Assembly: GCA_047602405.1 (NCBI GenBank)
Contig: JASGHJ010000001.1
Coordinates: forward strand, 1,376,001-1,440,000
Reading direction: 5' to 3'
Length of the DNA stretch: 64,000 nucleotides
Source: Anaeromyxobacteraceae bacterium
Lineage (GTDB): Bacteria > Myxococcota > Myxococcia > Myxococcales > Anaeromyxobacteraceae
Shown here: positions 34,053 to 55,124 of the stretch, piece after piece
Layout: every line of letters begins with the position of its first letter
How positions within the stretch are numbered: position 1 is the first letter of the stretch
Program-made: the position numbers and the translations under genes
Notes under the pieces: generated by a model
Databases searched by the model: none
What the model saw: only the letters and a program-made list of their open reading frames with translations
What the model was told of the DNA's origin: nothing

Positions 34053-35870
<1,818 letters not shown>

Positions 35871-35958: not shown

Positions 35959-37594
35959 CTAACCCCCGGCGACGAGGAGCTGGGCCAGCACGAGCTTCGC
36001 GAGCGTCGCGGCCGGGTAGGTCGCCGCGTAGCCCACGCTCGGGATGTCGTTCCCGGTCCGCTCGAGGGCGTGGCCGAGGACCGCCGGCTGGGTGTGGATC
36101 CCGGCCACCATGCCCATCGCGAGGCTCATCGGGATCTCGAGGAGCCGGTGGGCGACCCACAGCGCGGCGAGCGCGGTCGCGAAGGTGATCGCCACGCCGG
36201 CGCCGAGCAGCACGAGCCCCCGGGTGCCCGAGAAGGTCGCGAGGAAGCCCGAGCCGGCGCGGGTGCCGATCCCCGCCAGGAACAGGATGAGGCCGATCTG
36301 CCGGAGCGCGACGCTCGCCGAGAAGGGCAGGGTCCAGACGCGTCCGGCGGTGCGGTCGAGCGTGCCCGCGAGGAGCGCCACCACGAGCGGGCCGCCCGCG
36401 AAGCCGAGCGAGACGGTGACCCCGCCGGGGAGCGGGATGGGCACCATGCCGAGCGCGAGCCCGAGCGCGAGCCCTGCCGCGAAGGAGAGGATGTCGACCT
36501 CGCTCGCCGCCCGGTAGGAGTCGCCGAAGTAGGCCGTGACCGCCGGGAGATTGCGGACCGCGGCGAGCACCCGCACCCGGTCGCCGAGCTCGAGGCGCAT
36601 GTCGTCGGAAGGCAGGAGGTCCACGTCCCCGCGGCGCACGCGGGTCACCACCGCGCCGAGCGTGTGGGCGAGGTCGAGGTCCTTGAGCGGCCGCCCGGCG
36701 ACCTCCGGGCTCGACACGAAGATCCGCCTCAGGTCGAAGGCGCGGCGGTCGAGGTCGAGCCGCTCCTCGCTGCGCCGGCCGAGCCGCGCGATCACGCGCT
36801 CGAGCTCCGCCTCGGTGCCGACCACCGTGACGAGGTCGCCCCGCCGGAGGCGCGCCTCGGGCGCGACGAGCTGCAGCTCCGCGCCGCGGCGCATGCGGCT
36901 GAAGATGACCCGCCAGCGCAGGCCGCGGACGAGCTCCTCGACGGTGAGCGCGCCCATGTCCTCGGCGACCTCCACGGTCGCGCTCGCGAGCGGCTCGTTC
37001 GCCGCGCCCAGCTCGGCGAGCCGCTTCGCCTCGGCGGCGAGGTCGGGCTTCCAGAGCGCGGCGCCCAGCCGGAGCGCGAGCACCACGCCCGCGACGCCGA
37101 GCGGGTAGCAGATGGAGTAGGCGACGACCGGCTCGGAGACCACCCGGCCCGGGCTCGCGGCGCGCAGCGACTCGACCGCCGCGGCGAGGGCGGGGGTGTT
37201 GGTGAGGGCGCCCGCGAAGAGGCCGGCGGCGGTGCCGCGGTCGAGCCCGAGCGCCGCGCGCAGGGCCGCGACGCCCACCGCGGCGACCGCGACCACGCCG
37301 ACCGCGAGGAGCGAGTCGCGCAGCCCGTCGCGGCGGAGCGAGGCCACGAACGCGCGGCCCGACGAGAGGCCGACCGTGTAGACGAAGATCGCGAGCCCGA
37401 GCATGTAGACGATCTCGGGGAGCGCGAGGCTCGGGTCGACGGCGCCGGCGGCGAGGCCCACGAAGAGGCACCGCCGCCACGCCGAGCTCGCTGCCGCGCA
37501 GGCGCAGCCGGCCGAGCGGGTACCCCACCGCCGCCACCAGGAAGAGGAGGAGGAGGGGGTTCTTCGCGAGGAGCGGGACGAGCAGGTCCTTCAC
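35959..37594 (-). pseudogene. Aspartate:alanine exchanger (YidE/YbjL) family transporter, frameshifted as assembled at about 37467
   Basis: N-terminus MKDLLVPLLAKNPLLLLF...LGVAAV continues as LFVGLAAG...GALTNTPAL if one C is removed. Two TrkA-C-like domains, GIHTQPAVL. Confidence 0.85.
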
Positions 37595-37663
37595 GGGCGG
37601 GCGAGTCTACGCCGGGTCGGGCCCGGGGCCACGCGCCCGTTTGGCGCGGGCGGTCCGGCGGGG

Positions 37664-37960
37664 TCAGTTGTTCTCGTCGAGCGGGCCGAGGTCGGCCCGG
37701 GAGTCGATGCCGAGGTAGCGCAGGAGCCGGACGTGGTGGCGCCGCAGGCCGCGGACGGCGACCTTGCCGCGCCCCTTCGCGAGCGCCTGGGCGAGCACCG
37801 CGACGCCGAAGTCGTGAAACTCGCGGACGCCGGTGAGGTCCACCTCGAGCTGCTCCTCCGGACGCGCCGCGATGACCGCGTCGGCCACCCGGCGCGCGGC
37901 CGGCAGGTCGAACGTGCCTTCGAGGCGGAGCACCCGCGAGGTCTTGCCCTGTTCGTCCAC
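37664..37960 (-). CDS. STAS-domain protein
   Basis: LRLEGTFD, VDLTGVREFHDFGVAVL, VRGLRRHHVRLLRYLG. GTG start uncertain. Confidence 0.72.
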   Translation of the reverse strand: MDEQGKTSRVLRLEGTFDLPAARRVADAVIAARPEEQLEVDLTGVREFHDFGVAVLAQALAKGRGKVAVRGLRRHHVRLLRYLGIDSRADLGPLDENN

Positions 37961-38216
37961 GTGCCTGTCCGGCACCGCAGCGTGGAAGATCCATGCCGGG
38001 GTGAGCGCATGTGCGCGGAGGGGCGGCCAGCGTGGAAAGGGGCACGGCAGCCGGGGCTTGAGGGTGTCCGGCACCCGCGGTCCGGCTCGCCCGGACGGCC
38101 GGATCGGTCGACCCTGGGTCGAGTGGCACCGGGTCTCGGGTGGTGTCCGGCACCCGCAGCTCTGGCGCTGGCGGTGAGGTCGGTGCCCGGCGGGGTGTGT
38201 GCAGACGGGGCGGGTC

Positions 38217-39317
38217 CTACGGCTGGCCGGCCGGCGCCGGAGGTGCCGGACGCGGCTCCCCCGCCTTCTCGCAGCCCTCGAAGAGCTGCTCGACGCGGTC
38301 GCCCGCGAGCGCCATCTCCACCGAGAAGCTGCCCTTGTCGTCGAGGACCCTCGCGTGCTCGAGGAGCTCCGCCATGCGCCGGTCGTCCCTCGCCTGGGCC
38401 TCGACGCGCGCCGCCGCGAGCGCGCCGCCGATGGACCGCGCGATGTCCGAGAGCCCGGCGCCGTCGTCGCCGCGCACGCGCACGACGGACGCGACGTCGT
38501 TCATCGCGTCCACGTGGAACTCGACCCGGGACGCCGCGGCGGCGATCCGCTGCGCGAGCTCGGGATCCTTCTGGCCGAAGAGCCGCTGGACGGCGGTGCC
38601 GGGCACGACCCCGTACGCCTCGCCGTACGCCATGTCCTCGGGGATGCCGGTCTCGGGCGCCGGGGCGCGGCCCTCGAGCTGGTCGATGGAGCGCCGCAGG
38701 GACGCCTCGTCGCCCATGAGGACGAGGCCGTCGCCCCAGGTCGCGATGGCCGGCCCGCTCCCGCCGCCCCGCTGCCGGTAGAGGCGGCCGCCGTCGCCAT
38801 AGGACGAGGCGTCCGTGTTCCGCTCCAGCTGATCGCGCCGCATCCGGTCGAAGAAGCCCGACACGACCACGCTGTCGCCCGCGAAGCCGACGCGGTCGAC
38901 GTCCTTCAGCGGGTCGACGCCGATCTCCCGCTCGATCTTCGCGAACGTGTCCGGATCCCGCGCGAGCAGGCACGCGACGAGCCGCTCGCCGAGGCGCGAA
39001 TGCCGGAGCGCGTTCGCCTCGAGCACCACGACCGGCCGGTCGGCCGTGACGGGCAACGACACGAGGAAGGGATCGCGCCGGGGGGGCTCGGCCTGCGCGG
39101 GGCCCGGGCCGGGCGCCTGGGGGAGCACCAGCGTCGCCCGCGCGCGGGCGCGCTCCTCCTCGGCGGGGCGCATGTGGGACGGGAAGTCGACGCGCGTCCG
39201 CGTGGTCGGCGCCGGCTCGCGTTCGCCGAGCGAGAGCACGAGGGCCCCGAGGACGAGGAGCAGCGCGGCGAGCGCGATCCAGCGGAGGCGGCGGCTGCGG
39301 CTCTGCTTCGGGTCCAT
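38217..39317 (-). CDS. Membrane-anchored hypothetical protein, third gene of the ABC exporter operon
   Basis: ATG 39317 just after the permease stop. N-terminal TM WIALAALLLVLGALVLSL. Confidence 0.72.
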   Translation of the reverse strand: MDPKQSRSRRLRWIALAALLLVLGALVLSLGEREPAPTTRTRVDFPSHMRPAEEERARARATLVLPQAPGPGPAQAEPPRRDPFLVSLPVTADRPVVVLEANALRHSRLGERLVACLLARDPDTFAKIEREIGVDPLKDVDRVGFAGDSVVVSGFFDRMRRDQLERNTDASSYGDGGRLYRQRGGGSGPAIATWGDGLVLMGDEASLRRSIDQLEGRAPAPETGIPEDMAYGEAYGVVPGTAVQRLFGQKDPELAQRIAAAASRVEFHVDAMNDVASVVRVRGDDGAGLSDIARSIGGALAAARVEAQARDDRRMAELLEHARVLDDKGSFSVEMALAGDRVEQLFEGCEKAGEPRPAPPAPAGQP

Positions 39318-39319
39318 CG

Positions 39320-40156
39320 CTAGAAGTCCTTCCGGTCGAAGAGGGCCACGGCGCCGGCGAGCGCGGCCCCGGCGAAGAGCAGCGCCCCCGCGACCTGCAC
39401 CGCGACCTGCCGGGCGTCGAGCGGCGCCGCGATCGCCACCTGCGCTGCGTGGCGGGCGAGCTCCGAGATGCGCGGCAGGGGCGACGTGAGGACCAGGAAG
39501 GCCGCCCGGGAGAGCCCCGGGGAGAAGAGCGGCGCGAGGGTGGCGCGCTGCCCGGCGACGATGCCGAGGACCAGCAGCGCGGCGCCGGCGCCCGCCGAGA
39601 GCGCCGCCGAGCGCGCGGCCATCGCGGCGAGGATCATGACCGCGTACACCGCCGTGAAGCCCACCGCCGAGAACGCGGCGGCGGCCACCGGGCCCCAGTC
39701 GAAGAACCCGGACTTCACCCAGATGATGAGCGAGAGCCCGAGGCCTCCGTAGAGCGCCCCGCCGAACACCAGCGTGAGGACGCCGAGGAAGGTGCCGGAC
39801 ACGAGCTCGGAGCGGCGGACCGGCAGGGACAGCAGGTGCTCGATCCGGCCGGGGGCGAGCAGCGTCGGCGCGAAGTCGGCGCAGGCCAGGACGCCGAAGA
39901 ACGCGCCGCCGTAGAAGACGACGTACGAGAGCCCCTCGAAGAGGGGCCGGAGCGCGACGTCCACGGAGCGGATCTCGTGGGTGTGCGGCCCGCCCGAGAG
40001 GAACCGCGAGGCCGCGAGCGCGCCGTCGACGACCTCGAGCTCGAGCCCGAAGCCGACCAGCAGGAGGAGCCCGGTGACCGCGACCCCGAGCGCGAGCACC
40101 CAGCGCCGGGCGCGGGCCTCCCGGAGGAGATCGCGGGCGACGGCGAGCGTCCTCAT
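39320..40156 (-). CDS. ABC-2 type transporter permease
   Basis: Six hydrophobic segments, GRIEHLLSLPVRRSEL..G.FLG, C-terminal F.RKDF. Confidence 0.85.
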   Translation of the reverse strand: MRTLAVARDLLREARARRWVLALGVAVTGLLLLVGFGLELEVVDGALAASRFLSGGPHTHEIRSVDVALRPLFEGLSYVVFYGGAFFGVLACADFAPTLLAPGRIEHLLSLPVRRSELVSGTFLGVLTLVFGGALYGGLGLSLIIWVKSGFFDWGPVAAAAFSAVGFTAVYAVMILAAMAARSAALSAGAGAALLVLGIVAGQRATLAPLFSPGLSRAAFLVLTSPLPRISELARHAAQVAIAAPLDARQVAVQVAGALLFAGAALAGAVALFDRKDF

Positions 40157-41088
40157 GCGGCCTTCCCTCCCGCTCCCGGCGGGCTCCCGGACGAGATCGC
40201 CGCCGCGAGCACGTCCTCGAGGTCGCGGGACTCCGCCGTGAGCTCGACCACGAGCGCCCCGGCGTCGCGGGCCTGGTCGAGCGCCAGGTTGAGCGCCTCG
40301 GGGCCCTCCCCGGCGAACCGGTGCGCACCCTGCGTGTCCGGCACGAAGCCGGCGGCCTCGAGCGCCGGCCCGGGGGCGCCCGGCGCGAACCGGACCCGCC
40401 AGGCCGGGCGGGTCGCGGTGAGCGCATCGAGCGGCCCCTCGCGGACGATGCGACCGCCCACGAGGATCCCGACGCGGCCGCAGATGCGCTCGGTCTCCGC
40501 GAGGAGGTGGCTGTTGAGGAGGAGGGTCGCGCCGCGCGCGAGGGCCCGGCCGAGGAGGTTGCGGACCTCGACCCGGCCGATGGGGTCGAGGCCGTCGGTC
40601 GGCTCGTCGAGCACGAGGAGCTCGGGGTCACCCACGAGCGCGGCGGCGAGCCCCACCCGCTGGCGCATGCCCTTCGAGAAGCCGCCGGTCCGCCGGCGGG
40701 CCGCCTCGGCCACCCCGACCTCCTCGAGGAGCCGGAGCGCACCCCCGGGCCCGAGCCGGACACCCTTCATGCGCGCGACGCTCTCCAGGATCTCGAGCGG
40801 GGTCCACGCGGGCGAGAGGCGGAGCCGCTCGGGCAGGTAGCCCACCCGCGCGCGGACCTTCGGGTCCTCGGGGTCCCCGCCCAGGAGCCGGACGGTGCCG
40901 GACGTGGGCCGGACCACCCCGAGGAGCGCCTTCACGAAGGTCGTCTTGCCGGCGCCGTTCGGACCGATCAGGCCGAACGCGGTGCCGCCGGGGATGGCGA
41001 GGTCGAGCCCGCGCAGGGCGTCCTGCCCGCCCCGCCCGAGCAGGCCGGCGTACCGCTTCGTCAGTCCCTGGGCCTCGATCGCCAGCAC
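40153..41088 (-). CDS. ABC transporter ATP-binding protein
   Basis: GPNGAGKTT, FSKGMRQR, LDEPTDGLDP, NSH. Start near GTG 41088. Confidence 0.9.
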   Translation of the reverse strand: MLAIEAQGLTKRYAGLLGRGGQDALRGLDLAIPGGTAFGLIGPNGAGKTTFVKALLGVVRPTSGTVRLLGGDPEDPKVRARVGYLPERLRLSPAWTPLEILESVARMKGVRLGPGGALRLLEEVGVAEAARRRTGGFSKGMRQRVGLAAALVGDPELLVLDEPTDGLDPIGRVEVRNLLGRALARGATLLLNSHLLAETERICGRVGILVGGRIVREGPLDALTATRPAWRVRFAPGAPGPALEAAGFVPDTQGAHRFAGEGPEALNLALDQARDAGALVVELTAESRDLEDVLAAAISSGSPPGAGGKAA

Positions 41089-41202
41089 GTCCAGGCATCC
41101 TACGTCGTCCGGCGCCACGGAATTTCGCCGTGTCCGGCACCACCGGTTTCGCCGCGGGCCGCCTCGACTCCTGACCGGGACTCTGCTTGACTCCGGGCAC
41201 GC

Positions 41203-42475
41203 ATGAAGCCCTCCGCCCCCCGCTCCGGAGTGCCGGGCGCGTCGGTCGTGCTCGGCCCGGCCGTGGTCGTCGCGGCCCTCGGCTACTTCGTCGACATCTA
41301 CGACCTCATCCTGTTCAACATCGTGCGCATCCCGAGCCTCACCGCGCTCGGGGTGCCCAGGGCGGAGCTCATCGACGTCGGCGCCAGCATCATCAACTGG
41401 CAGATGACGGGGATGCTGCTGGGCGGGATCGGGTTCGGGATCATCGGCGACAAGATCGGACGCCTGCAGATCCTGTTCGGCTCGATCACGCTCTACTCGA
41501 TCGCCACGATCGCGAACGGGTTCGTGGGCATGCAGGACGTCCTGCCCGCGCTCTGGGAGTACCGCGCCCTGCGGTTCGTCGCCGGGGTGGGGCTCGCGGG
41601 CGAGCTCGGCGCCGGCGTCACGCTCGTCGCGGAGGTGCTGCCCGCGCGCCTGCGGGGCTACGGCACGATGCTCGTCGCCTCCGTCGGGGTGTCCGGGGCG
41701 GTGGTCGCGAACCTCGTCGCGAAGCACATGGACTGGCGCATCGCGTACTGGGTGGGCGGCGGGCTCGGCCTCGTGCTCCTCATCCTGCGGATCGGCGTGC
41801 GCGAGTCGTCCATGTTCGACCGGGTGAAGGGCGCCGCGGGCGTCCGGCGGGGCCACTTCCTCGAGCTCTTCACGAGCGGCAAGCGGCTCGGGAAGTACGC
41901 CGCGTCGATCCTCATCGGCGTGCCGATCTGGTTCTCGAACCGAGATCCTCATCGCCTACTCGCCGGAGTTCGCGCCCGCCCTCGGCGTCACCGGCCCGAT
42001 CTCGGCCGGGGACGCGGTGATGATGTTCTACGGCGGGCTCGTGGTCGGCGACCTCACGAGCGGCATGCTCTCCCAGGCGCTGCACTCGCGCCGCAAGGTG
42101 GTGCTGTCGTTCGTGCTCGCGCTGCTCGGCGCGAACGTCCTCTACTTCGTGCTCGGCCGCGGGGCTTCGCCCGGGCTCTTCCTCGCCCTGTGTGGCCTCC
42201 TCGGGTTCACCGGCGGGTACTGGGCGATCTTCATCACCATCGCGGCGGAGCAGTTCGGGACCAACATCCGCGCGACCGTCGCCACCACCGTGCCGAACTT
42301 CGTGCGCGGCCTCGTGGTGGTCGTGAACGCGATGTTCCTCGCGACGAAGGGCTCCCTCGGCCTCGCCGGCGCGGCCGCCGCGGTGGGCGCGGTCTGGTTC
42401 ACCGCCGCGCTCGTCGCCGCGTACGGGCTGCGGGAGACGTTCGGCATCGACCTCGACTACGTCGAGCCGGACTAG
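41203..42475 (+). pseudogene. MFS transporter, frameshifted as assembled at about 41940
   Basis: GYFVDIYD, GDKIGR, RFVAGVGLAGE. Removing one C from AACCGAGATC gives NEILIAYSPEF, continuing to AEQFGTNIRAT...LRETFG. Confidence 0.85.
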
Positions 42476-42488
42476 CGCCGGAGGTCCC

Positions 42489-43277
42489 GTGCTGCGCGTG
42501 ACCCACGTCGGGACGGCCTGCGCGGTCCTCGAGGTCGAGGTGCCGGACACGCCTCCCCTCCGGCTCCTGACCGACCCGGCCTTCGACCCGCCCGGGCGCC
42601 GCTACCACTTCGGCTGGGGTACCTCGTCCACGAAGCTCGAGCGGCCCGCCGTGGACCCCGCCGCGGTCGGCCGGCTCGACGCGGTCCTCCTGTCCCACGA
42701 CCAGCACGCCGACAACCTCGACGACGCCGGCCGCCGGCTCATGGCCGCGGCGCCCTGCGTGGTCACCACCCGCAGTGCCGCCCGCCGCATCGCGGGTGCC
42801 GGACACGCGGGGGTCCGGGGGCTCCGGCCCTGGGAGTCGGTGCAGATCGGCCCCGTCCGGATCACCGCGACGCCCGCGCGGCACGGGCCGCCGCTGTCGC
42901 TGCCGTTCGTGGGGCCGGTGATCGGCTTCGTGCTCGAGTGGACGGGCCAGGAGCGCGGGGCCGTGTACGTCACCGGGGACACCGTGCGGTTCGCCGCCCT
43001 CGCCGAGGTCGGCCGCCGCTTTCGCGTCGGGACGCTGGTCGTGCACATGGGCGGCGTCGGGTTCCCGCTCTACGGGCCCATCCGGTTCACGATGCGGGCC
43101 CGTGACGCCGCGCGGCTGGCGCGCGAGCTCGGCGCCGGGACCATCGTCCCGGTGCACTACGCAGGCTGGAGGCACTTCCTCGAGCCGAGGGCCGAGGCGG
43201 AGCGGGCCTTCGCGGCCGCCGGCTTCGACGAGCGGGTCCGCTGGCTCGAGCCCGGCGTCGCGACGGTCATCGCCTAG
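42489..43277 (+). CDS. MBL-fold metallo-hydrolase
   Basis: LLTDP, LSHDQHADNLD, PARHGP, YVTGDT, VPVHY.GW.HF. Confidence 0.88.
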   Translation: MLRVTHVGTACAVLEVEVPDTPPLRLLTDPAFDPPGRRYHFGWGTSSTKLERPAVDPAAVGRLDAVLLSHDQHADNLDDAGRRLMAAAPCVVTTRSAARRIAGAGHAGVRGLRPWESVQIGPVRITATPARHGPPLSLPFVGPVIGFVLEWTGQERGAVYVTGDTVRFAALAEVGRRFRVGTLVVHMGGVGFPLYGPIRFTMRARDAARLARELGAGTIVPVHYAGWRHFLEPRAEAERAFAAAGFDERVRWLEPGVATVIA

Positions 43278-43280
43278 GTC

Positions 43281-44723
43281 CAATGCCGCTCACTTAAGCC
43301 CTCGGCGTTTCCGGGGGTAGTTGCTCATCTTGATCTTCACGGCCCTCGGGTAGGACCGCAGCCGTCGCTTCGGCAGGATGAAGTGCACGACGTCTTCCCG
43401 GAGGCGGCGGAGGTGCTCCGGGATGCGTCCCGCGCTCTCTAGGGAGAGCGTTAGGAGGGCGTGCTCGATGTACATGAGCGCGTTCTTGAAGCTGACGCGG
43501 TCGGGCGTGACGCCGGCGTCCTCGGCCATGCGCTCCATCTCGAGCCGGACGAGGTTGTACGCGAGGGCGAGGCCCCAGAGCTCCTGGGAGACGCCGCGAG
43601 GAGTCCTGCTGCGCGTCGTCTCCTCGCGGTCGAGCATGACAGTCTTGACCTCGTCGTAGCCGAGCTCGATCTCCCAGCGCTCGTGGTAGAGCGCGACGAT
43701 CTCGGCCGCCGGGTAAACCTCCGGGTCCGTCATCGACGTCAGCAGGGTCTGAGGCTTGAAGCCCTTCCGCTGATAGCGGATCGCCCGCATCTCCCAGCGC
43801 TCGGGGAGGTCAGGGTTCTCTCGGCGGGCGTCCCGGTGGACGGTCTTCTCGACGAGCCAGTCGCCGCGCCCGAGCGAGCGGACTACCTTCCAGGCCGTGT
43901 CGCTCTTCGCGCGGATGAGCCAGTGCCTTCGATGCCCGTGGCTCGCAATGCCGATGAGCAGCGCCGACGAGAGGAAGTTGCGATCCACGATGCACAGCGA
44001 CTCGTCCGGCACGAGCGGCCACAACTCCCTGGCGAGAGCGATCTCGCTGCCCGACTGTGGACCGAAGCGGGCCGCCGCCAGCAGGTGCGAGCGGAGGGCC
44101 ATCAGCGTGACGAGGCGTGCCATCGGATACGCGCTCTCGCCTCGGGAGCTCACGGCGTAGCCGAAATGATCGCGGTTCGCTTCGGAGTCCGGGAGACGGA
44201 CGGTCGTGCCGTCCACGCCGTAGACGGCGAGCCCGCGCCACGCGTGCCGGCGCGCACTCTCGTGCGCCCACTTTTCGGCGCTGCGTTCGAACAGCCAGCG
44301 GATGGGCTCGCTGCCCAGCCGCTCGCGCGCCTGGGTCACCGAACTCGAGGCCGCGCGCGGGCGCCGCCCCGGTAGCGCGAGATCGAGCTCCGCGACGATC
44401 TCGGCGATGGGCTTGTTACGGTAGATGCCCATCCCGAGCACGAGCCAGACGACCTGCTCGGCTGGAAGGCGGCGCCGGCGGATGGTGGCCGTCCCGGTGG
44501 CCTGAAGGGCTTCCTCGATCCATTCGGGATCGAGGCTCGCCTGGAACCTATCCAGCAACTCGCCCGAGCTGTCCTCTTGGGCGGAAACGGGGCGACGCGG
44601 CATGGGATCGCCCTCCGGGCGATCGCCGCATCATGATCTCCTGGATCGCCGCGGCAACTCTGCTGCCCCGGCCTCCAAAATCCCCATCGGTCTCGATCGG
44701 TTGGCGCTAACCGATCGGCATTG
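43281..44723 (-). mobile_element. Complete IS4-family insertion sequence (1443 bp)
   Basis: Imperfect terminal IRs CAATGCCGCTCACTTA / CAATGCCGATCGGTTA. 10-bp direct repeat CGCCTAGGTC at 43271-43280 and 44724-44733. Confidence 0.93.
43290..44603 (-). CDS. IS4-family DDE transposase
   Basis: IRRRRLPAEQVVWLV N-terminal domain, VDGT, DRNF, and the YREK motif LYHERWEIELGYDEVK. Confidence 0.94.
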   Translation of the reverse strand: MPRRPVSAQEDSSGELLDRFQASLDPEWIEEALQATGTATIRRRRLPAEQVVWLVLGMGIYRNKPIAEIVAELDLALPGRRPRAASSSVTQARERLGSEPIRWLFERSAEKWAHESARRHAWRGLAVYGVDGTTVRLPDSEANRDHFGYAVSSRGESAYPMARLVTLMALRSHLLAAARFGPQSGSEIALARELWPLVPDESLCIVDRNFLSSALLIGIASHGHRRHWLIRAKSDTAWKVVRSLGRGDWLVEKTVHRDARRENPDLPERWEMRAIRYQRKGFKPQTLLTSMTDPEVYPAAEIVALYHERWEIELGYDEVKTVMLDREETTRSRTPRGVSQELWGLALAYNLVRLEMERMAEDAGVTPDRVSFKNALMYIEHALLTLSLESAGRIPEHLRRLREDVVHFILPKRRLRSYPRAVKIKMSNYPRKRRGLK

Positions 44724-44869
44724 CGCCTAGGTCCGCGCCGCGGACCTCACGTCCGCCGCGCGGACCCCTGGCCCATCCCCCGGTCGTGTCCGGCACCGAT
44801 GGAAGCACTGGGAGAGAAGGGGCTCGCGCCGGGCGCGCCCCTGGCCCGGACCTTGCTCTACCCCGCCCC

Positions 44870-45547
44870 ATGCCTCGCATGGCGCGCCGCCAGCTCGTGA
44901 CGAAGGGTTCGATCAACCACGCGGTGTGGCAGACCCACAACCTCGAGGCCTTCTTCGACGCGCCCGGCGCCCGCCAGAAGTTCTACGAGCTCCTCCTGAA
45001 GTACAAGGCCGAGCACCGGGTCCGGATCCACTCCTACGTCTTGATGGGCACGCACCCTCACGTCGTCTGCCTGAGCGAGAAGGGCCAGGAGGACTTCTCC
45101 ATGTTCTGGAAGAAGGTCAACCAGGCCTTCGCGAAGTGGTTCAACAAGCAGACGAAGCGGCGCGGACAGGTCGTGATGGAGCGGCTCGAATCCCCGCGCA
45201 TCCAGGACGAGCGCCACGCGCTCGCCGTCATGCGCTACGTCGACAGGAATCCGGTGCAGGCGAAGCTCGTGAAGACGCCCAAGGACTGGAGGTACTCCAG
45301 CCACCGGCACTACGCGTACGGGGAGGCCGACCCGCTCGTCGACGACGCGCCCGCGTACCTCGCGCTCGGCGATCACCCGCTGAAGCGGCGCAGGGCATAC
45401 CTCCACCTCTTCGCGGAGCCGCTCGAGGTGAAGGAGGAAGCTGCCGACGCCGCCTACGTGAAGAAGCCGTTCATCGGCGAGAAGGAATGGGCGGAGCGGA
45501 TGAAGAAGGCCGCGGCCGCGGCGCGCGCGGCGCCCCGACCACCCTGA
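44870..45547 (+). CDS. REP-associated tyrosine transposase (RAYT/TnpA-REP, HUH Y1 family)
   Basis: MPRMAR start, YVLMGTHPHVV (HuH), MRYVDRNPV.A.LV..P.DWRYSS (catalytic Tyr and NP/WSS motif). Confidence 0.88.
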   Translation: MPRMARRQLVTKGSINHAVWQTHNLEAFFDAPGARQKFYELLLKYKAEHRVRIHSYVLMGTHPHVVCLSEKGQEDFSMFWKKVNQAFAKWFNKQTKRRGQVVMERLESPRIQDERHALAVMRYVDRNPVQAKLVKTPKDWRYSSHRHYAYGEADPLVDDAPAYLALGDHPLKRRRAYLHLFAEPLEVKEEAADAAYVKKPFIGEKEWAERMKKAAAAARAAPRPP

Positions 45548-45600
45548 GGCCGATGAAGATCCCGTGGACGCGGCGCGCGTCCTCCTGCACAACTCCCCCC

Positions 45601-46119
45601 GTGTCGCTCTACGTGGTCGACGTCGAGGCGGACGGGCCCATCCCGGGCAAGTACTCCATGGTGTGCTTCGGCGCCGTGCTCGTCGAGCCCGGCCTGGGCC
45701 GCACCTTCTACGGGACGACGCGCCCGATCTCGGACGCGTGGCTGCCCGAGGCGCTCGCGATCTCGGGCATCACGCGGGAGCAGCACCTGACCCACGACGA
45801 GCCCGGCGAGACCATGGCCGCGTTCGCGAAGTGGATCGCGGAGACCACGCGCGGCAAGCCCGTCTTCTTCTCGGACAACCTCGCGTTCGATTGGCAGTAC
45901 GTGAACTGGTACTTCCACACGTACCTCTCCGTGAACCCGTTCGGCTGGAGCGGCAGGCGCATCGGCGATCTCTACTGCGGCATGGTGAAGGACGCCTACG
46001 CGCCGTGGAAGCACCTGCGGAGGTCGGCGCACGATCACCATCCGGTGAACGACGCGCGCGGCAACGCGGAGGCGCTGCTCGCGCTCGTCGACATGGGCCT
46101 GAAGCTGCAGATCCGCTGA
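45601..46119 (+). CDS. DEDD-type 3'-5' exoribonuclease domain protein
   Basis: VVDVEADGPIPG.YSM, DNLAFDWQYVNWYF, HDHHPVNDARGNAEA. Start at 45601 or 45553. Confidence 0.8.
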   Translation: MSLYVVDVEADGPIPGKYSMVCFGAVLVEPGLGRTFYGTTRPISDAWLPEALAISGITREQHLTHDEPGETMAAFAKWIAETTRGKPVFFSDNLAFDWQYVNWYFHTYLSVNPFGWSGRRIGDLYCGMVKDAYAPWKHLRRSAHDHHPVNDARGNAEALLALVDMGLKLQIR

Positions 46120-46125
46120 TCGGCC

Positions 46126-46752
46126 GTGCTCGCGCTCCTCTCGCAGGGGGCCCTCCTCGGGCTCTCGTCGTCCGCCCAGCCGGGCCCGTTCCAGGGCTAC
46201 CTCGTCGCGCGCTCGCTGCACGCCGGCTTCCGGCGAAGCTGGCCCATCGCGATCGTGCCGCTCCTCTCGGATCCTCCGGTGATCGCCGTCCTGCTCCTCG
46301 TCCTCCAGCGGGTGCCGGACACGCTCCTCACCTGGCTCGGGGCGGCCGGGGGCGTCGTCGTGATCTGGCTGGGCGTGGGCGCGCTCCGGCAGGCCCTGCG
46401 CGTGTCCGGCACCCCGCCGGTGTCCGGTACCCCGGGTTCTCCTGGCGAGGAGCCGCGCGGGCTCGTGCGGGCGACGCTCGTGAACCTCACGAACCCGAAC
46501 GCGTGGATGTTCTGGAGCCTCTTGGGGGGCCCGACGCTCACGTCCGCGTGGCGGCGCTCGCCGCTCGAGGCGGTCGCGTTCCTCGCCGGCTTCTACGCGT
46601 GCCTCGTGGGCGGGAACGTGCTCCTCGTGGCGCTCGCGGGTCGCGCCGCGGCGGCCGGCCCTCGCCTCGCCCGCACCCTCGGTCTCGCCTCGGGGGCCGG
46701 GCTCCTCGCCTTCGGCCTCTGGCAGCTCGGCCGAGCCCTGGCGCGCGCCTGA
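46126..46752 (+). CDS. LysE-family translocator
   Basis: G...G.S...QPGP, NLTNPNAWMFW, six hydrophobic segments. Confidence 0.85.
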   Translation: MLALLSQGALLGLSSSAQPGPFQGYLVARSLHAGFRRSWPIAIVPLLSDPPVIAVLLLVLQRVPDTLLTWLGAAGGVVVIWLGVGALRQALRVSGTPPVSGTPGSPGEEPRGLVRATLVNLTNPNAWMFWSLLGGPTLTSAWRRSPLEAVAFLAGFYACLVGGNVLLVALAGRAAAAGPRLARTLGLASGAGLLAFGLWQLGRALARA

Positions 46753-46789
46753 ACCCGGCGGACGCCCCGGGCGTGATAGCTTCCGCCCG

Positions 46790-47584
46790 ATGCAGTCACG
46801 CCTCCGCTCCGTCCTGGCGCTCGCCGCCGCCGCCGCCGTCGGCGGCCTGGGGACCTGGGGCTTCCTCACGCTCTCGCCCGCCCCGCGCCCCGAGGTGCCA
46901 GCCGAGGCGCCCGCGAAGCCGTCGCCGGCCTACCCGGGCGGAAAGCCCATCGACGCCGCGGCCATCCAGTCCGGGACCCTCGCCGTCGAGCGGATGCCGC
47001 CGGAGGTGACCGGCGCGCTCGAGGTCCACGGCGCCGAGCTCGTGAAGGCCGAGAAGGCGCTCGCGACGAAGCAGGCCCGGATCATCGGCCTCTGCGCCCC
47101 CGGCTCCGCGATCCGGGTGGTCGGCGAGGACGGCAGCGTCGTCTGCCAGCGGCTCCCCCGGGGCGTCGCCTCGGTCTCCGCGGTCGGCGCGACGCCGCGG
47201 GTCTCCTCGTCCGGCACGATGCAGGGCACCGTGCCCGGCGCGGTCGGCCGCTACCAGACCTCCGGCGACGACGACTTCCTGGTCGCGCCCATCGCGCTGC
47301 CCGACGGCGCGATCGTGACCGGCCTCAGCTACATGTACTGGGACGTCGACGAGAAGGTGGACGGCGGCGCCTACCTCTACCGGAGCGACGACACCGTCAT
47401 CGCGGGCGTGGCGACGCAGGGCGCGAAGGCGGAGGTCCGGGTGGCCGAGACCGACCGCACCGACGCGACCGCCCGGCGCATCGACAACGCCGGCTTCGCG
47501 TACCACGTCTACATGCAGACGTCGTCGGCCGCCGGCGCGAGCCTCATGCCCATCGCCGTGACCGTCACCTACCGTCTCCCGTAG
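46790..47584 (+). CDS. Exported or membrane-anchored hypothetical protein
   Basis: N-terminal hydrophobic segment, CAPGSAIRVVGEDGSVVC motif, beta-rich C-terminus. Confidence 0.65.
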   Translation: MQSRLRSVLALAAAAAVGGLGTWGFLTLSPAPRPEVPAEAPAKPSPAYPGGKPIDAAAIQSGTLAVERMPPEVTGALEVHGAELVKAEKALATKQARIIGLCAPGSAIRVVGEDGSVVCQRLPRGVASVSAVGATPRVSSSGTMQGTVPGAVGRYQTSGDDDFLVAPIALPDGAIVTGLSYMYWDVDEKVDGGAYLYRSDDTVIAGVATQGAKAEVRVAETDRTDATARRIDNAGFAYHVYMQTSSAAGASLMPIAVTVTYRLP

Positions 47585-47594
47585 GACCGCCCAG

Positions 47595-48743
47595 ATGCCC
47601 GCACGCTCGCTCGGCCGGATCCGCCGGCTCGTCGTGAAGGTCGGCACCGGCACCCTCACCGACCGCACCGGCCGCTTCGATCACGAGAACTGCGCCCGGC
47701 TCGCGAAGGAGCTCGCCGAGGCCGCGAAGGGTCGCACCCTCGTCCTCGTCACGTCGGGGGCGGTCGCCCTGGGCGCCGAGCGGCTCGGGCTCGTCCGGCA
47801 CCGCGGGAAGCCCTGGGACATCCCCACGAAGCAGGCCTGCGCGGCGGTCGGACAGCCCCACCTCATGGCGGCGTGGGGCGACGCGCTCGTCCGGCATGGC
47901 CTCGAGGTCGGCCAGGTGCTGCTCACCGCCGACGACCTCGCCTCGCGCAAGCGCTTCCTCAACGCGCGCCGCACGTTCCAGCGGCTGCACGAGCAGGGGG
48001 TCGTCCCGGTGGTCAACGAGAACGACACCGTCGCGGTCGACGAGATCAAGGTCGGCGACAACGACACGCTCGCCTCCCTCGTCGCCGGCTGCGTCGAGGC
48101 CGACCTCGTCGCGATGCTGACCGACGTCGAGGGGCTCTACGACCGGAACCCCTCCGAGCCCGGCGCGGCGCTGGTGCCGGACATCCCCCGGATCACCGCC
48201 GAGATCGAGCGGATCGCCGGCGGCGCCGGCAGCGAGCGCAGCGTGGGCGGGATGGCCACGAAGGTCCGCGCGGCCCGGCGCCTCTCGGCCCAGGGTGTCA
48301 CGACCGCGCTCCTCTCCGGCCGCCGCGCCGGCGCGCTCGCCGCCCTGCTCGCCGGCGACCGCGTCGGCACCGTCTTCGCCCCGGGCAAGGAGCGCCTCTC
48401 CTCGCGCCAGGGCTGGCTGGCCGCCGCCGCGCGCGGCAAGGGCGTGATCCTCGTCGACGCCGGCGCCCGCCGTGCCCTGACCGAGCAGGGGCGCTCGCTC
48501 CTTCCCTCCGGGGTGAAGGGCGTGGAGGGCCAGTTCGGGGTGGGTGACCCCGTCGACATCGCGGTCGACGCCGACCGGCCCTTCGCGCGCGGCCTCGCGG
48601 GCTACGGCGCGGACGAGGTGCGCCGCATCGCGGGCCTGAAGACGAGCGAGATCGTCCGGGCGCTCGGGTATAAGTACCTGGACGAGGTCGTCCACCGGAA
48701 CGACCTCGTCGTCCTCGACGCGGAGCGGGAAGAGCGGGAATGA
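47595..48743 (+). CDS. proB: Glutamate 5-kinase
   Basis: [39 protein letters not shown]-terminal PUA domain. Confidence 0.96.
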
Positions 48744-50122
48744 AGTCGGCAGCCGTCCAGAAGTCGCGGCCCAGGAAGGCGCACGCTCCGGCGGCGACGC
48801 CCGCCCTCGCTCGGCCCGAACCCGCAGGTCCGGCCCCCGCCGCCCCCGGGAAGGCGGGCCTCGCGGCCGAGATGCGCAGCATGGCGCTCGCCGCGCGGGA
48901 GGCGTCGCGCGCGCTCGGCCGGGCCACCACCCGCCAGAAGGACCGCGCGCTCGTCGCCGCCGCGGGGGCCCTTGAGCGGCGCGCGAAGCGGATCCTGGCC
49001 GCGAACGCGAAGGACGTCGCCGCCGCCGTGAAGGCCGGCCGCCCGGAGGCGCTCGTCGACCGCCTCCGCCTCGACGAGGCGCGCCTCGCCGGCATCGCGG
49101 TGGCGCTCCGCGAGATCGCGGCGCTCCCCGACCCGGTGGGCGAGGTCACCCGGAGCTGGACGCGCCCGAACGGCCTCTCGGTGAGGAAGGTCCGCATCCC
49201 GCTCGGCGTCGTCCTCATGGTCTACGAGGCGCGGCCGAACGTGACGGTGGACGCCGCCGCGCTCTGCCTGAAGAGCGGCAACGCCGCCATCCTCCGCCCG
49301 GGCTCCGAGGCGCTGCGCTCGTCGCTCGCGCTCGCCGAGGCGTTCGCCGAGGGGCTCCGCGAGGCCGGACTGCCCGCCGCGGCCGCGCGGGTCGTCCCCA
49401 CCGCCGACCGCGAGGCGACGTTCGAGCTGTTGAAGCTCGACGACCTCATCGACCTCGCCATCCCGCGCGGTGGGCCGTCGCTCATCCGCGCGGTGGCCGA
49501 GCGGTCGCGCGTACCGCTCGTGAAGCACTACCAGGGCGTCTGCCACCTCTTCCTCGACGCCTCCGCCGAGGTCGAGAAGGCGGTCGCCATCGCGGTGAAC
49601 GCGAAGGCCTCGCGGCCCGGCGTGTGCAACGCGCTCGAGTGCCTGCTCGTGCACCGCCGCGCCGCCGCGAAGCTCCTCCCCGAGGTGGGCCGCGCGCTCG
49701 TGAAGGCGGGCGTGCAGCTCCGGGCGGATCCCGCCGCGCTCGAGCTCCTGAAGGCCGCGAAGGTGAAGGCGGTCGCGGCCGGGCCCGACGACTTCGGCAA
49801 GGAGTTCCTCGACCTCGTGCTCGCGGTGCGGGTGGTGCCGGATCTCGACGGCGCCCTCGACCACATCGCGCGGTACGGCTCCCTGCACACCGAGGCGATC
49901 CTCACGCGCGACCTCGCGAACGCCCGCCGCTTCGAGCGGGAGGTGGTCGCGAGCGCGGTCGTGGTGAACGCCTCCACGCGGTTCAACGATGGCGGCGAGC
50001 TCGGGCTCGGCGCCGAGATCGGCATCTCCACCACGAAGCTCCACGCGTTCGGGCCCATGGGGCTCGCCGAGCTCACGGCCCAGAAGTACGTGGTCGAGGG
50101 CGACGGTCAGGTGCGTGGCTAG
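48740..50122 (+). CDS. proA: Gamma-glutamyl phosphate reductase
   Basis: PLGV...[52 protein letters not shown]. Confidence 0.96.
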
Positions 50123-50153
50123 ACTCGAATTCACCGAAGGTACCGGGAGACAC

Positions 50154-50723
50154 ATGGCGAAGAAGGCGGTCAAGAAGGCTCCGGCGAGGAAGAAGGCGCA
50201 GCGCGGCGGCAAGAAGGGCCCGGCCCCGAAGGGCAAGAAGGTCCAGGCGCCCGGGAAGAAGGCGCCCCCGCGCGGCGCGAAGCCGGCGCGCAAGGGGCCG
50301 CCCGCGAAGGCGCCCCGCATCGGCAAGGAGGCCTCGCTCGCCGTGCCGGCCGCGCCGCCGCCGAAGCGGCCGCCGAACGACGAGGCGCACGCGACCGCGC
50401 TCGCGATCGCGAACGCCGGCCTCGACAAGAAGGCCGAGGACGTCGTGCTCCTCGACGTGCGCGGCCTCACCGGCTACGCTGACTACTTCGTGATCATGAC
50501 GGCCGACTCCGATCGCCAGGCCTCCGCGATTGCCGACCACCTCGACGAGAAGATGAAGGACGCCGGCGTCACGAAGGTCGGCTCGGAGGGCTACGAGACC
50601 GGCCGCTGGATCCTCGTCGACTACGGCGACGTCGTCGCCCACGTGATGAGCCGCGACTCGCGCGAGCTCTACGACCTCGAGGGGCTCTGGGCGGACGCCC
50701 CGCGGACGAAGCTCGAGGGCTAG
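50154..50723 (+). CDS. rsfS: Ribosome silencing factor with Lys/Ala/Pro-rich N-terminal extension
   Basis: DKKAEDV..LDV, ADYFVI, WILVDYGDVVAHV...R..YDLEGLW. Confidence 0.92.
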   Translation: MAKKAVKKAPARKKAQRGGKKGPAPKGKKVQAPGKKAPPRGAKPARKGPPAKAPRIGKEASLAVPAAPPPKRPPNDEAHATALAIANAGLDKKAEDVVLLDVRGLTGYADYFVIMTADSDRQASAIADHLDEKMKDAGVTKVGSEGYETGRWILVDYGDVVAHVMSRDSRELYDLEGLWADAPRTKLEG

Positions 50724-50735
50724 CGCCCCGCCGCG

Positions 50736-51350
50736 ATGCCCGTCCGGCACCGCGATCGCGGCGAGAGGCTCGACCACTTCGTCGCCGGTGACGTGGGCGA
50801 CGAGGTCCTCGTCCGGTGTCCGGGCTGCGGCGGCCGCGCGGTCGCCCGCCCGGACCCGCGGGGCGCAGGCGGCGCGACCCTGACGTGCGCCGCGTGCGGG
50901 CTCGCCCGCCGCCGCGCGGAGCCGGAGGCCGCGCCCCGGGACCGCCGCTGCCCGCGCTGCGAGCGCTGGATCCCGGCCTCCGCGTGGGCGCCCGCCGGCG
51001 ACGGGCGCCGCCACGACGCGCGGTGCCCGCGCTGCGGCAACGTGGTCCGCGCCGCGATCGAGGCGTGGTCCACGCTGACCGGCGCCCCCGTCGACCCGTG
51101 GTTCCGGGAGCCGCTCTGGCTGCAGGCGCCCTGCGCGGGCGAGCTCCTCTGGGCCTACAACCGCCGCCACCTCGAGCACCTGGCTGCGATTGTCGGCGCC
51201 ACGCTCCGCGAGCGCCCGGGCCGCCCGGGCGGGAACGCGAGCATGCTCTCCCGCCTGCCCCGCTGGATGAAGGCCGCGAAGCACCGCGAGGAGGTCCTGC
51301 GGGCCATCGCGGCGCTCCGACGGCGCTGGCCCCTGAGTCCGGCCCGCTGA
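50736..51350 (+). CDS. Multi-CxxC zinc-ribbon hypothetical protein
   Basis: CPGC, CAAC, CPRC, CPRC, then DPWF..PLWLQ..C...LWAYN..HL...LP.WMK.AK.R. Confidence 0.72.
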   Translation: MPVRHRDRGERLDHFVAGDVGDEVLVRCPGCGGRAVARPDPRGAGGATLTCAACGLARRRAEPEAAPRDRRCPRCERWIPASAWAPAGDGRRHDARCPRCGNVVRAAIEAWSTLTGAPVDPWFREPLWLQAPCAGELLWAYNRRHLEHLAAIVGATLRERPGRPGGNASMLSRLPRWMKAAKHREEVLRAIAALRRRWPLSPAR

Positions 51351-51381
51351 AGCCACGGTGCCTGCCCGCTAGAACCCCGGC

Positions 51382-52311
51382 ATGCCACAGGTGCCGGACA
51401 CGAACCTCCCACAGGTGCCGGACACGCGCCTCCGCGGGAAAGTCGCCGTGGTGACCGGGGCTTCCCGGGGTGCCGGACGAGGCGTCGCGATCGAGCTGGG
51501 CGCGGCGGGCGCGACCGTCTACGTCACCGGCCGCACCACGCGCGGGGCGTCGCCGCCCTCGGGCTACGCCCGGATCGTCGAGCTCTCGAAGCTCCCGGCC
51601 ATGCCCGGCAACATCGAGGACACCGCCGAGGAGGTCACCCGCGCCGGCGGCCGGGGCATTCCGGTGAAGGTCGACCACACCCGGGACGAAGAGGTCCGCG
51701 CCCTCTTCGAGCGGCTCGACCGCGACGAGGGCCGCCTCGACCTCCTCGTGAACAACGCCTGGGGCGGGCACGAGGCCTTCGACGGCCGCTTCGAGGCGCC
51801 GTTCTGGGAGCACGACCTCGCGCAGTGGGACGCGATGCTCGACCGCGGCGTCCGCAACCACCTCCTCGCCTCCCGCCACGCCGCGCCGCGGATGGTGCGT
51901 GCCGGACACGGCCTGATCGTCACGACCACCTTCTGGGACCGGGGCCGGTACCTGCGCGGCATGCTGGCGTACGACCTCGCGAAGGCCGCGATGACCCGCC
52001 TCGCGTTCGGCATGGCCGAGGAGCTGCGGCCCCACGGCGTCGCCTCCGTCGCGGTCTCCCCGGGCTGGATGCGCACCGAGCTCGTGCTCGCCGGCCACCA
52101 CGCCACCGAGGCCACCTGGCGGGAGCGCCCGGAGCTCGCGTCGACCGAGTCGCCGCGCTACCTCGGCCGCGCGGTCGCCGCGCTCGCGGCCGACCCCGAC
52201 GTGCTCCGCGCCTCGGGCGAGGTCCTCCGCGTCGCCGACCTCGCGGAGCGCTACGGCTTCACCGACGTCGACGGCCGCCGGCCGAAGGCGTTCGAGCTGC
52301 CGGAGCGGTGA
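51382..52311 (+). CDS. SDR-family oxidoreductase
   Basis: VTGASRGAGRG, LVNNA, YDLAK (YxxxK), SPGWMRTE. Confidence 0.9.
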   Translation: MPQVPDTNLPQVPDTRLRGKVAVVTGASRGAGRGVAIELGAAGATVYVTGRTTRGASPPSGYARIVELSKLPAMPGNIEDTAEEVTRAGGRGIPVKVDHTRDEEVRALFERLDRDEGRLDLLVNNAWGGHEAFDGRFEAPFWEHDLAQWDAMLDRGVRNHLLASRHAAPRMVRAGHGLIVTTTFWDRGRYLRGMLAYDLAKAAMTRLAFGMAEELRPHGVASVAVSPGWMRTELVLAGHHATEATWRERPELASTESPRYLGRAVAALAADPDVLRASGEVLRVADLAERYGFTDVDGRRPKAFELPER

Positions 52312-52327
52312 CGGGCGCGCGCCGCCG

Positions 52328-53124
<797 letters not shown>

Positions 53125-53128
<4 letters not shown>

Positions 53129-53940
53129 GCGTCCATCCCCCGGTGCCAGCGCAGGAGCCAGCCGTTGAGCCGCGCCATCGCGAGGTCGATGCCGAGCCCC
53201 GCGACGCCGATCGACGCCATGCCCGCGATGACCTTGTCCGACCAGAAGTACTCGCGCGCCTCGAGGATGCGGTAACCGAGCCCGGAGTTCACCGCGATCA
53301 TCTCGGCGACGATGACCACGATGAACGCGACGCCGATGCCGATGCGGACGCCGGAGAGGATGTAGGGCATCGCGGCCGGGACCATGATGCGCCGGAACAC
53401 CGTCCACTCGGAGGCGCCCAGGTTCCGGGCGGCGCGCAGGTAGATCCCGTCCACGTGGCGCACGCCCGCGATGGTGTTCATCAGGACCGGGAAGAACGCG
53501 CCGAGCGAGATGAGGAAGAACGCGGGCGGGTTCCCGAGGCCGAACCAGAGGATCGCGAGCGGGATGTACGCGATCGGCGGGATGGGCCGGAGGATCTGCA
53601 CGAGCGGGTTGAAGAGCGCGTACGCCATGGGCCGCGCGCCCATGACGAGGCCGAGCGGCAGCGCGAGCCCCGCCCCGAGCGCGAAGCCGCCGCCGACGCG
53701 CACGAGCGAGGCGAGCGCGTCGTGCGGCAGCTCCCCCGAGAAGAGCCACGCGACGTACGACCCGGCGGCGGGGTCGTACGCCTCGACGGGCTTCGCGTAC
53801 TGGATCCAGCGCAGGAGGACGCGGGACGGGGCGGGCAGGACCAGCGGCGACACCCAGCCCATCCGCGAGACGAGCTCCCAGAGCCCGAGCGCGACGGCCG
53901 GGACGAGGAGCGCCTTCACGAGCTCGAGCGCGCGGCGCAC
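53125..53940 (-). CDS. NitT/TauT-type ABC transporter permease
   Basis: LRPIPPIAYIPLAILWFG, EAA-like AARNLGAS, AEMI...SGLG. Confidence 0.92.
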
Positions 53941-53997
53941 CCTACGTCGGCCTCCGCCGGCGTGCCTCCCCCGCGCCGGCCCGCGCCGCCGGACGCC

Positions 53998-54960: not shown

Positions 54961-55124
54961 GGGGAGATTCCTCCTCCGGCGGGGGCCGGGTTCACGGAGC
55001 GTGGCTGCGGGCAGCCGGGAGAGCGTACCGTCCGGTGAGGGGCGCGGGGGCTCCCGCTTGGGGGTCCGCCGCCGCAGCCGGGCCCTTGCCCGAAACACGG
55101 GCAGGCCCCGGCCGTACGTGCCGC

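Follow-up and report, generated by a model that had tools for sequence, protein, structure and literature searches.

A 13-bp word with a halo around a HUH nuclease gene in an Anaeromyxobacteraceae genome, likely written by that nuclease in cis

Why does one very short word recur around a single nuclease gene of the HUH/Y1 type, and inside the genes that neighbour it? The question is raised by a stretch of 64,000 nucleotides from an Anaeromyxobacteraceae bacterium (GenBank assembly GCA_047602405.1, contig JASGHJ010000001.1, positions 1,376,001 to 1,440,000 of the forward strand), which we call the window. The original prediction took the gene for a REP-associated tyrosine transposase (RAYT) and candidate driver of an 11-bp repeat, and proposed a possible minimal system of repetitive extragenic palindromes (REPs). 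Judging from sequence comparison, we consider it likely that the word is a 13-bp end sequence of a TIRtron-like kind centred on a bracket-less HUH nuclease gene, that inside host genes it mostly replaces DNA of equal length and that the nuclease writes it in cis. This answer rests on a halo of copies that thins out with distance, on gene and word occurring together across genomes, on the word standing as an inverted end tip in relatives, on length-neutral replacement and on an intact enzyme under purifying selection. The source genome is labelled G000, with contigs C1 (which holds the gene) and C2, and its closest relative is labelled G010.

The word has the 13-bp consensus GGTGCCGGACACG, and its true unit is 12-13 bp, not 11. 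The window contains 31 exact 11-mers (8557..59859, both orientations; 15 in predicted genes and 16 intergenic), while shuffled sequence gives a mean of 0.09 and a maximum of 1. The genome has 144 copies of the core, i.e. 22 on C2 and 122 on C1, where a fifth-order Markov model expects 3.4. The 50-kb bin containing the nuclease gene holds 33 copies; counted outward from the gene, the number rises from 32 at up to 20 kb to 75 at up to 300 kb and 119 at up to 1 Mb. The density within 20 kb is 80 per 100 kb vs 0.58 on C2 (~140-fold). By distance it is 40-100 per 100 kb below 20 kb, 15-25 between 20 and 40 kb and, out to 320 kb, ~10 to the left vs 2.5 to the right; the tail reaches ~1 Mb and is asymmetric, stronger leftward. 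Five C2 copies at 2.313-2.315 Mb are background, since they are codons of a repeated protein unit. The link between gene and word had been called circumstantial because the motif is common across the window. It is far stronger than that: the copies peak at the gene, and the word is common in the window because the gene is there.

Near the gene, 24 and 17 sites with 0 and 1 mismatches are observed vs ~0.2 and 0.8 expected, with a small excess at 2-3 mismatches and none at 4. Among fragments of the word, those anchored at its 5' end are enriched (9 vs 1.0), and 3'-anchored ones are not. The mismatch spectrum and the 5'-anchored fragments fit one-step writing better than a stepwise build-up. The seven other Y1 loci of G000 belong to a different family; around each of them 0-1 copies lie within 15 kb, vs 24 at the nuclease gene. 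Intergenic copies are ~6 times denser than genic ones and favour divergent gaps (21 gaps hit vs 12.6 expected). A left/right polarity of words was sought in G000 and none was found, although relatives show polarity. As for other words, Y1 genes of the other family near C2:3727200 and C2:3486500 have their own local words, with 11 of 12-13 and 5/7 genome copies within 15 kb, and no such word is present at the family's multi-copy member. Two more over-represented words (176 and 150 copies) are even over C1 and C2, with no peak at any Y1 gene.

The relatives tell whether gene and word travel together. A quick search tree of 70 of the 80 homologue loci plus the window (ten short or partial loci were excluded) contains a separate myxobacterial clade of 42 rows, with SH-aLRT 100 and on a long branch. 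We collected 92 genomes of the family, many of them incomplete and with kin that are not independent, and counted a nuclease match at E 1e-15 or better, which 39 genomes have and 53 do not. The 12-mer reaches at least 11 copies in seven genomes (120, 150, 50, 26, 18, 13 and 11), all with a clade protein, and the 53 genomes without a match have 0-6 copies. For 30 of the 42 clade rows the top local word has the core GGTGCCGG followed by a variable 3' tail, i.e. ACAC, ACGT (a subclade of 10, one with ACAT), AGTC, GCAC, ACAT, GCAT, AGGA, AGGT or ACG, and the tail follows several subclades of the tree.

Halos are also found at unrelated loci. In G012, 19/26 copies lie within 30 kb of the gene, and in G020, 39/50 lie within ~7 kb of two genes. 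The AGTC word forms halos at unrelated loci in G015 (26/31) and G007 (11/14). Further halos occur in G003 (12/16 copies) and, for the ACGT word, in G116 (12/16 within ~12 kb). At the syntenic locus of G010 the density peak of G000 recurs. A 10-mer scan in G021 was discarded, the background being too high (165 vs 120 in the control), and a degenerate-word scan of G001 and G072 gave no clear halo among the matches listed. The genus g24 (e.g. L175, L177, L188 and L202) deserves separate mention: 13/14 of its genomes carry the gene, with the same UvrD-like neighbour (name read from sequence) in the five loci compared, and at these loci the word is common to orthologous coding sites and the halo is tight, ~12 kb. 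The g24 copy is long-resident and possibly domesticated.

What is the word? In 20 of 39 non-duplicate relatives it stands forward 44-200 bp before the start of the nuclease gene and reversed ~190-260 bp after the stop, and these bracketing words are often stuttered along with host flank and 5'-anchored fragments. In these relatives the word is the tip of an inverted end bracketing the gene, the arrangement that Di Nocera 2013 (PMC3733652) gives for TIRtrons, and therefore the system is TIRYT/TIRtron-like and not a classical REP system. The proposal of a minimal REP system needs correcting on this point: the word is no hairpin, since at four sites it folds no better than shuffles (z-scores near 0), and relatives carry it as the outermost part of a TIRtron-like terminal inverted repeat (TIR). 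At the nuclease copy of G000 the outer forward word is missing, as is a reverse word between +190 and +260, and by this comparison G000 and G010 have lost the brackets. A word copy does lie 84 bp 5' of the ATG (44785..44797, minus strand). It is reverse to the bracket orientation of mobile relatives, and it is not a special anchor because it is not intact in G010. The copies first reported are all there, at 44786 (plus strand, the copy at -84), 46312 (minus strand), 46402 (plus strand) and 46420 (one mismatch); the length of the unit and the standing of the -84 copy are the two points to be qualified.

The TIR motif GGGGWSAS is absent as word core here, the core being GGTGCCGG, and GGGGTCAG-type words occur only at distant homologues (29-33% identity). 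At L243 and L244, long direct repeats of host sequence (~25-70 bp) flank the bracketed element on both sides, which is unusual for Y1 elements and suggests replicative insertion. Junctions joining tip to tip number 0 near the gene and two in the genome, and the search for such an excision scar near the nuclease gene came back empty.

The nuclease gene itself (44870..45547, plus strand) has an intact reading frame of 225 aa from the ATG, and its catalytic motifs are as first read: H62-P63-H64 within THPH and Y123 within YVDRNP (Y-x3-N127-P128), with H62, H64 and Y123 invariant in 12/12 aligned homologues. S143 and S144 of the SS motif (WRYSS, proximal tail) are invariant as well. The middle HuH residue is proline in 11/12 aligned clade members, outside the hydrophobic L, V, I, F, Y or M that defines TnpA-Y1 class 2 together with Y-x3-NP in the accessible text of PMC6006769. 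By fold, the closest match is E. coli TnpA-REP 4er8 (E 5e-7; predicted structure with pLDDT 80.8), also matched by profile at E 3e-6. The matches to NF047646 REP_Tyr_transpos (66.5 bits) and PF01797 (20.5) are below the cut-offs of 80 and 23. No Pfam match to a C-terminal helix-turn-helix (HTH; Bac_DnaA_C, HTH_23, HTH_28) was found in 12 clade members at E 0.1. We file the clade as TIRYT-like and not as a proven member, because the core, the HuH proline and the missing HTH tail differ. The features of IS200/IS605 (subclass 1.1) are not those seen here, i.e. 225 aa and not ~150, Y-x3-NP and not Y-x3-Q, a single copy and no tnpB; the absence of tnpB, as originally stated, follows from the neighbours, which are an IS4 transposase, an exonuclease with a weak Rv2179c-like match and LysE. 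The ratio dN/dS is 0.17 vs the 86% identical orthologue in G010 (codons 1-186), and the nuclease is evidently an intact enzyme under purifying selection. Its nearest homologues are in records titled Anaeromyxobacter, Anaeromyxobacteraceae, Myxococcales or uncultured delta proteobacterium, and plasmid homologues are only 28-35% identical (10 of 21 records listed).

By our own simple gene caller, 79 of the 144 copies (55%) are in predicted genes, 72 of them in the VPDT or VSGT frame, and 64 genes are touched, background included. Outgroup DNA was obtained for 18 in-gene sites, of which 17 were alignable. At 11 of the 17 there is no indel, the word having taken the place of just as many older bases, and the other six are N-terminal or loop sites. 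In lysE, for example, outgroup CAG GTG CCG GCG GGG becomes CGG GTG CCG GAC ACG, and in a TatC-like gene (name read from sequence) TTC TTC GGG ACG becomes GTG TCC GGC ACG. Other clades behave alike, with length-neutral sites at L196 (4/4, in genes 60-87% identical), L175 (6/7), L186 (6/7) and L167 (3/4); G000 was the sole outgroup in this comparison and most sites there have no comparable homologue. Where the replacement is length-neutral (11 sites), the outgroup agrees with the word at 6.8 of 13 bases vs 4.8 for background in the same genes (p ~1e-5), best at CCG, and this earlier match could come partly from protein selection. The idea that the enzyme is tied to a very short word tolerated inside genes stands, on the density peak, the co-occurrence, the halos and their absence around the seven other Y1 genes; it needs changing in that the copies are mostly overwrites.

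The individual sites in the window are as follows. In lysE, the word at 46311..46323 (plus strand, VPDT) is length-neutral against outgroup codons that are mostly VPAG (17 outgroup lysE genes aligned, no indel), and two words at 46402..46430 (minus strand), one with one mismatch that is exact in G010, make the loop VSGTPPVSGT, longer than in most outgroups. A gene of the metallo-beta-lactamase (MBL) fold has a five-codon insertion VPDTP (42540..42554, plus strand) that is missing from 7/7 homologues of 47-61% identity, and a word in another frame (GAGH; 42796..42806, plus strand) where the loop is 2-5 codons longer than in homologues. Length-neutral words occur in a GT2 glycosyltransferase (21095..21105, plus strand; VPRT/VPEL to VPDT), in an unnamed 458-aa gene (25166..25176, plus strand), three times in one ABC ATPase gene (28824, 28896 and 29766, within 28824..29776; vs 5 outgroups), and in an ABC permease (39792, VSGT) and an ABC ATPase (40334, VPDT), both within 39792..40344 and compared with 2 outgroups. 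A short-chain dehydrogenase/reductase gene (51391..51909, plus strand) has an N-terminal tandem pair (51391 and 51415), with three copies in G010, and a length-neutral internal word at 51899. Over its start region (51382-51425) G000 has two exact words and G010 three, and the single outgroup, G024, reads MPDTN, a near-match; with this one outgroup the order may have been near-match, conversion, then stutter.

Comparison of G000 with G010 shows how the copies turn over. Of the aligned sites, the two genomes have 35 in common; another 13 occur in G010 alone and 5 in G000 alone, and a few of these unshared sites are alignment artefacts. Tandem gains of 13 and 24 bp are seen, and the orientation of the word is flipped at the same locus at window position 35944 and at G000 C1:1466272, which suggests conversion between two readings of a near-palindrome. 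In the aligned region 15/15 in-frame coding copies of G000 are intact in G010, where 10.5 are expected on one branch (p 0.005); the symmetric test gives 17/22 (p 0.01-0.02). Neighbouring words within 60 bp are 21-24 bp apart in 13/18 pairs, with spacers mostly unshared, and an intergenic array of four words (55173..55249, minus strand) has spacings of 21, 21 and 24 bp. Conservation and array spacing fit re-writing beside bound copies, and also selection on binding sites. Carry-over of donor flank was also considered; the outer side has a weak excess only (34 vs 19, p 0.01), on which we do not rely.

How could one gene write a word around itself? We lean, with modest confidence, towards a stationary HUH nuclease acting as a cis-limited writer. 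It would overwrite partial matches with its own 13-bp site in one step, at a rate falling with distance to a megabase, recode dozens of unbroken host proteins (VPDT/VSGT) and, in its variants, write different tails. HUH enzymes nick single-stranded DNA, keep the 5' end on the tyrosine and leave a free 3'-OH that primes synthesis or attacks the link, and in several bacterial transposases the coupling of transcription to translation makes the enzyme act in cis, as the available text of PMC8266576 and PMC6182136, respectively, describes. Such coupling may hold this nuclease near its own gene, which would be the cause of the halo. The enzyme would bind a word copy and use its catalytic tyrosine to nick single-stranded DNA; ~10-13 nt would then be copied from the GGTG end, either by strand transfer or by template switching primed at the nick, two routes that the sequence alone cannot tell apart. 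The recipient would be a nearby, partly matching site with a CCG core, where a variable number of target bases is lost. Within genes, selection would then remove all outcomes except those that preserve the frame and are tolerated (VPDT/VSGT, net change 0 or +15 nt). Acting again next to copies already present, the enzyme would produce the arrays spaced 21-24 bp and might restore copies that have decayed.

Several points weigh against this proposal. Of the 39 clade-carrying genomes, 32 are not rich in this word (8 or fewer copies), and many of these have other words. Twelve of the 42 clade rows lack the core word as top local repeat. The ACAC tail recurs in at least three separate branches and hence the co-variation of protein and tail is partial, on the quick tree. 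The ACGT word is modestly enriched genome-wide, with 12-28 copies in genus g24 and 10-18 in nine genomes outside it, among them G002, a genome without a nuclease match, with 12. G010 is syntenic and therefore not independent. Word orientation is without strand bias in G000, unlike the lagging-strand bias of the IS608 type, and pairs of donor and recipient show no excess on the inner flank (16 vs 15.2 expected). The outgroups are 50-72% identical in protein, so the ancestral states are approximate. Length neutrality and the pre-existing match could both result from selection filtering any mutational process.

An alternative hypothesis, which we regard as unlikely, is that the nuclease binds the word without writing it. 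Copies would then arise by ordinary point mutation and persist as local binding sites for a domesticated protein, maintained by selection or by a repair ratchet of the kind suggested for HIP1. The conservation of copies beyond codon expectation (15/15 vs 10.5; 17/22), targets that resembled the word beforehand, array spacings of about two helical turns (21-24 bp), and the ~6-fold higher density between genes with its lean to divergent gaps (21 vs 12.6) would all suit mere binding. Against it, intermediates with 2-4 mismatches are in little excess; the sites differ from outgroups at ~6 of 13 bases on average, many of the changes altering amino acids. One clean five-codon insertion and the words that change orientation at one locus from G000 to G010 are also difficult for it, as are the invariant catalytic residues and the halos around multi-copy bracketed elements.

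Those bracketed elements lend themselves to another hypothesis, in which each copy is the footprint of a local hop by the whole element or a gene-less miniature, inserted and then imprecisely excised. The word is indeed the end tip of multi-copy bracketed elements in relatives, whose ends stutter with host flank; one net insertion is seen; and REPs locally concentrated near the gene are on record for Marinomonas in the accessible part of PMC8266576. We still judge it quite unlikely. Footprints should usually add bases, yet 11/17 sites are length-neutral, and the intermediate would disrupt genes such as the TatC-like one. The tip-to-tip junctions (none near the gene, two in the genome) speak against it too, and the two largest halos, in G000 and G010, surround a single bracket-less gene at a fixed site. 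Could the word belong to another local factor, i.e. the exonuclease, IS4, a host chromosome-organising protein or another Y1 enzyme, with the nuclease a bystander? The asymmetric tail, stronger leftward, and the further Y1 genes in the genome might hint at this. We consider it highly improbable and largely refuted already, as the exonuclease is present in 20/20 outgroup loci of genomes mostly without the word, G010 has 150 copies without IS4, the other Y1 genes have 0-1 copies nearby, and halos accompany the nuclease clade to unrelated loci.

The region upstream of the gene holds candidate control elements. A predicted sigma54-type promoter, GG-N8-TTGC (44842..44857, plus strand), ends 13 nt 5' of the ATG. 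Such a box stands 13-17 nt 5' of the start in 38/40 clade members, and 9-16 nt before the start in 22 of 5074 called genes of G000. The transcript is probably leaderless and expression probably under control. Further upstream, a pair of GGTCCGC-N3-GCGGACC palindromes (44730..44766) forms a strong hairpin (-20.4 kcal/mol, z -6.46), retained in G010 and partly in 7 further relatives, and is a candidate activator site or subterminal structure. As a REP family it was rejected, with only ~20 scattered matches, several of them 5' of Y1 genes. The same palindrome lies 5' of three Y1 genes of another family and of one YifB/ComM-family ATPase gene (G000 sites C1:2322664 and C2:3137584, 3486149 and 3727541). 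The ATPase gene also has a sigma54 box 13 nt before its start, and RadC-like and GIY-YIG-like genes (names read from sequence) bear the same box; these genes may form a shared DNA-uptake or repair regulon.

Of the neighbours, the insertion sequence (IS) of the IS4 type (43281..44723, minus strand, 10-bp target duplication) is outside the word/nuclease system. Its insertion is recent, given five near-identical copies in the genome and its absence from G010, and it is skipped in one long metagenome contig of a relative. Among sequencing runs no RNA data set with the sequence was listed, and the only matches were contigs of a relative ~92% identical. The element landed at the foot of the upstream palindrome. 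Word copies are fewer in G000 than in IS-free G010 (120 vs 150; unshared sites 5 vs 13), which may reflect lower activity. The nuclease gene sits between the MBL-fold gene and a DEDD-type exonuclease (45553..46119, plus strand), a core host gene and a bystander. The link once drawn to this exonuclease is incidental, since the gene is present in 20/20 outgroup loci without such a nuclease in front; in 9/20 of them the MFS gene, which here precedes the MBL gene, directly adjoins it. No repeated REP with a GTAG/CGTC hairpin was found within ~3 kb of the nuclease gene, the sole multi-copy matches being IS4 sequence, in agreement with the first description, and no Rfam RNA was found near the gene.

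If true, cis-limited writing of sequence would be a mutational process apart from transposition, point mutation and known REP insertion. Overwriting, if real, would be an overlooked source of clustered multi-nucleotide protein changes near such genes and possibly a small protein tool for short scarless DNA writing. With a single gene, a 13-bp substrate, tail variants found in nature, a distance curve that can be measured and sequences of individual sites before and after, the system makes the question directly testable. In the largely open-access article text covered, neither this clade nor length-neutral overwriting nor a megabase decay was found to be reported. The text supplements of PMC3733652 and PMC6006769 gave no match to Anaeromyxobacter or to the core GGTGCCGG, and literature searches on motif strings returned no relevant paper, 'TIRYT' occurring only in the 2013 and 2018 papers.

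Already published, as far as the accessible sources go, are TIRtrons and families of TIR repeats, as well as REPs that lie in genes or cluster close to their gene. TIRYT/TIRtron were described by Di Nocera 2013 (PMC3733652) and equated with TnpA-Y1 subclass 2.1 by Quentin 2018 (PMC6006769), in the text available of both. Our system resembles them in the HUH/Y1 gene of ~225 aa, in the Y-x3-NP and SS motifs and in the TIRs, instead of REP hairpins, that flank the gene in 20 of 39 relatives; their TIR copies, too, occur as singles, dimers and clusters. It differs in the core, GGTGCCGG and not the GGGGWSAS found in the TIR of most but not all TIRYTs, in the HuH proline, in lacking a C-terminal HTH and in the brackets lost from the G000 copy. 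The available accounts of TIRtrons describe no distance decay, in-gene TIR copies or length-neutral overwriting.

With RAYT/TnpA-REP and their REPs and REPINs (E. coli 4er8; accessible text of PMC8266576 and PMC5581495) the nuclease has the catalytic core and the single copy in common; its predicted fold matches 4er8 best, it would likewise spread a cognate repeat, and near-gene concentration (Marinomonas) and some REPs in genes are reported there as well (PMC8266576). Unlike those systems it has no GTAG guide, no stable hairpin and 13 bp vs 20-40; their repeats are almost all extragenic, whereas 79/144 copies (55%) here are in predicted genes and mostly replace sequence, and the intergenic ones lean to divergent gaps and not to sites downstream of genes. 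For Group 1 RAYTs, the flanking 16-mers are only weakly abundant in what is available of PMC5581495. HIP1 of cyanobacteria, according to the text at hand of PMC4390886 and PMC5861425, is likewise a short over-represented in-gene word with above-control conservation and a proposed conversion of near-matches. HIP1, however, is spread over the whole genome and has been associated with methyltransferases and a suggested ratchet of mismatch repair, whereas our word is centred on one gene, goes with a HUH nuclease and has no large pool of intermediates. The cyanobacterial short dispersed repeats, known to us through those two citing papers, are also very small mobile repeats with a defined target preference, e.g. 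SDR5, which is cited there as inserting into HIP1. Finally, the cis-acting IS transposases (Tn5, Tn10 and IS911; PMC6182136, as far as its text was available) are kept near their gene by coupled transcription and translation, as would be the case here; they are DDE enzymes that move whole elements, whereas here only the 13-bp end word accumulates.

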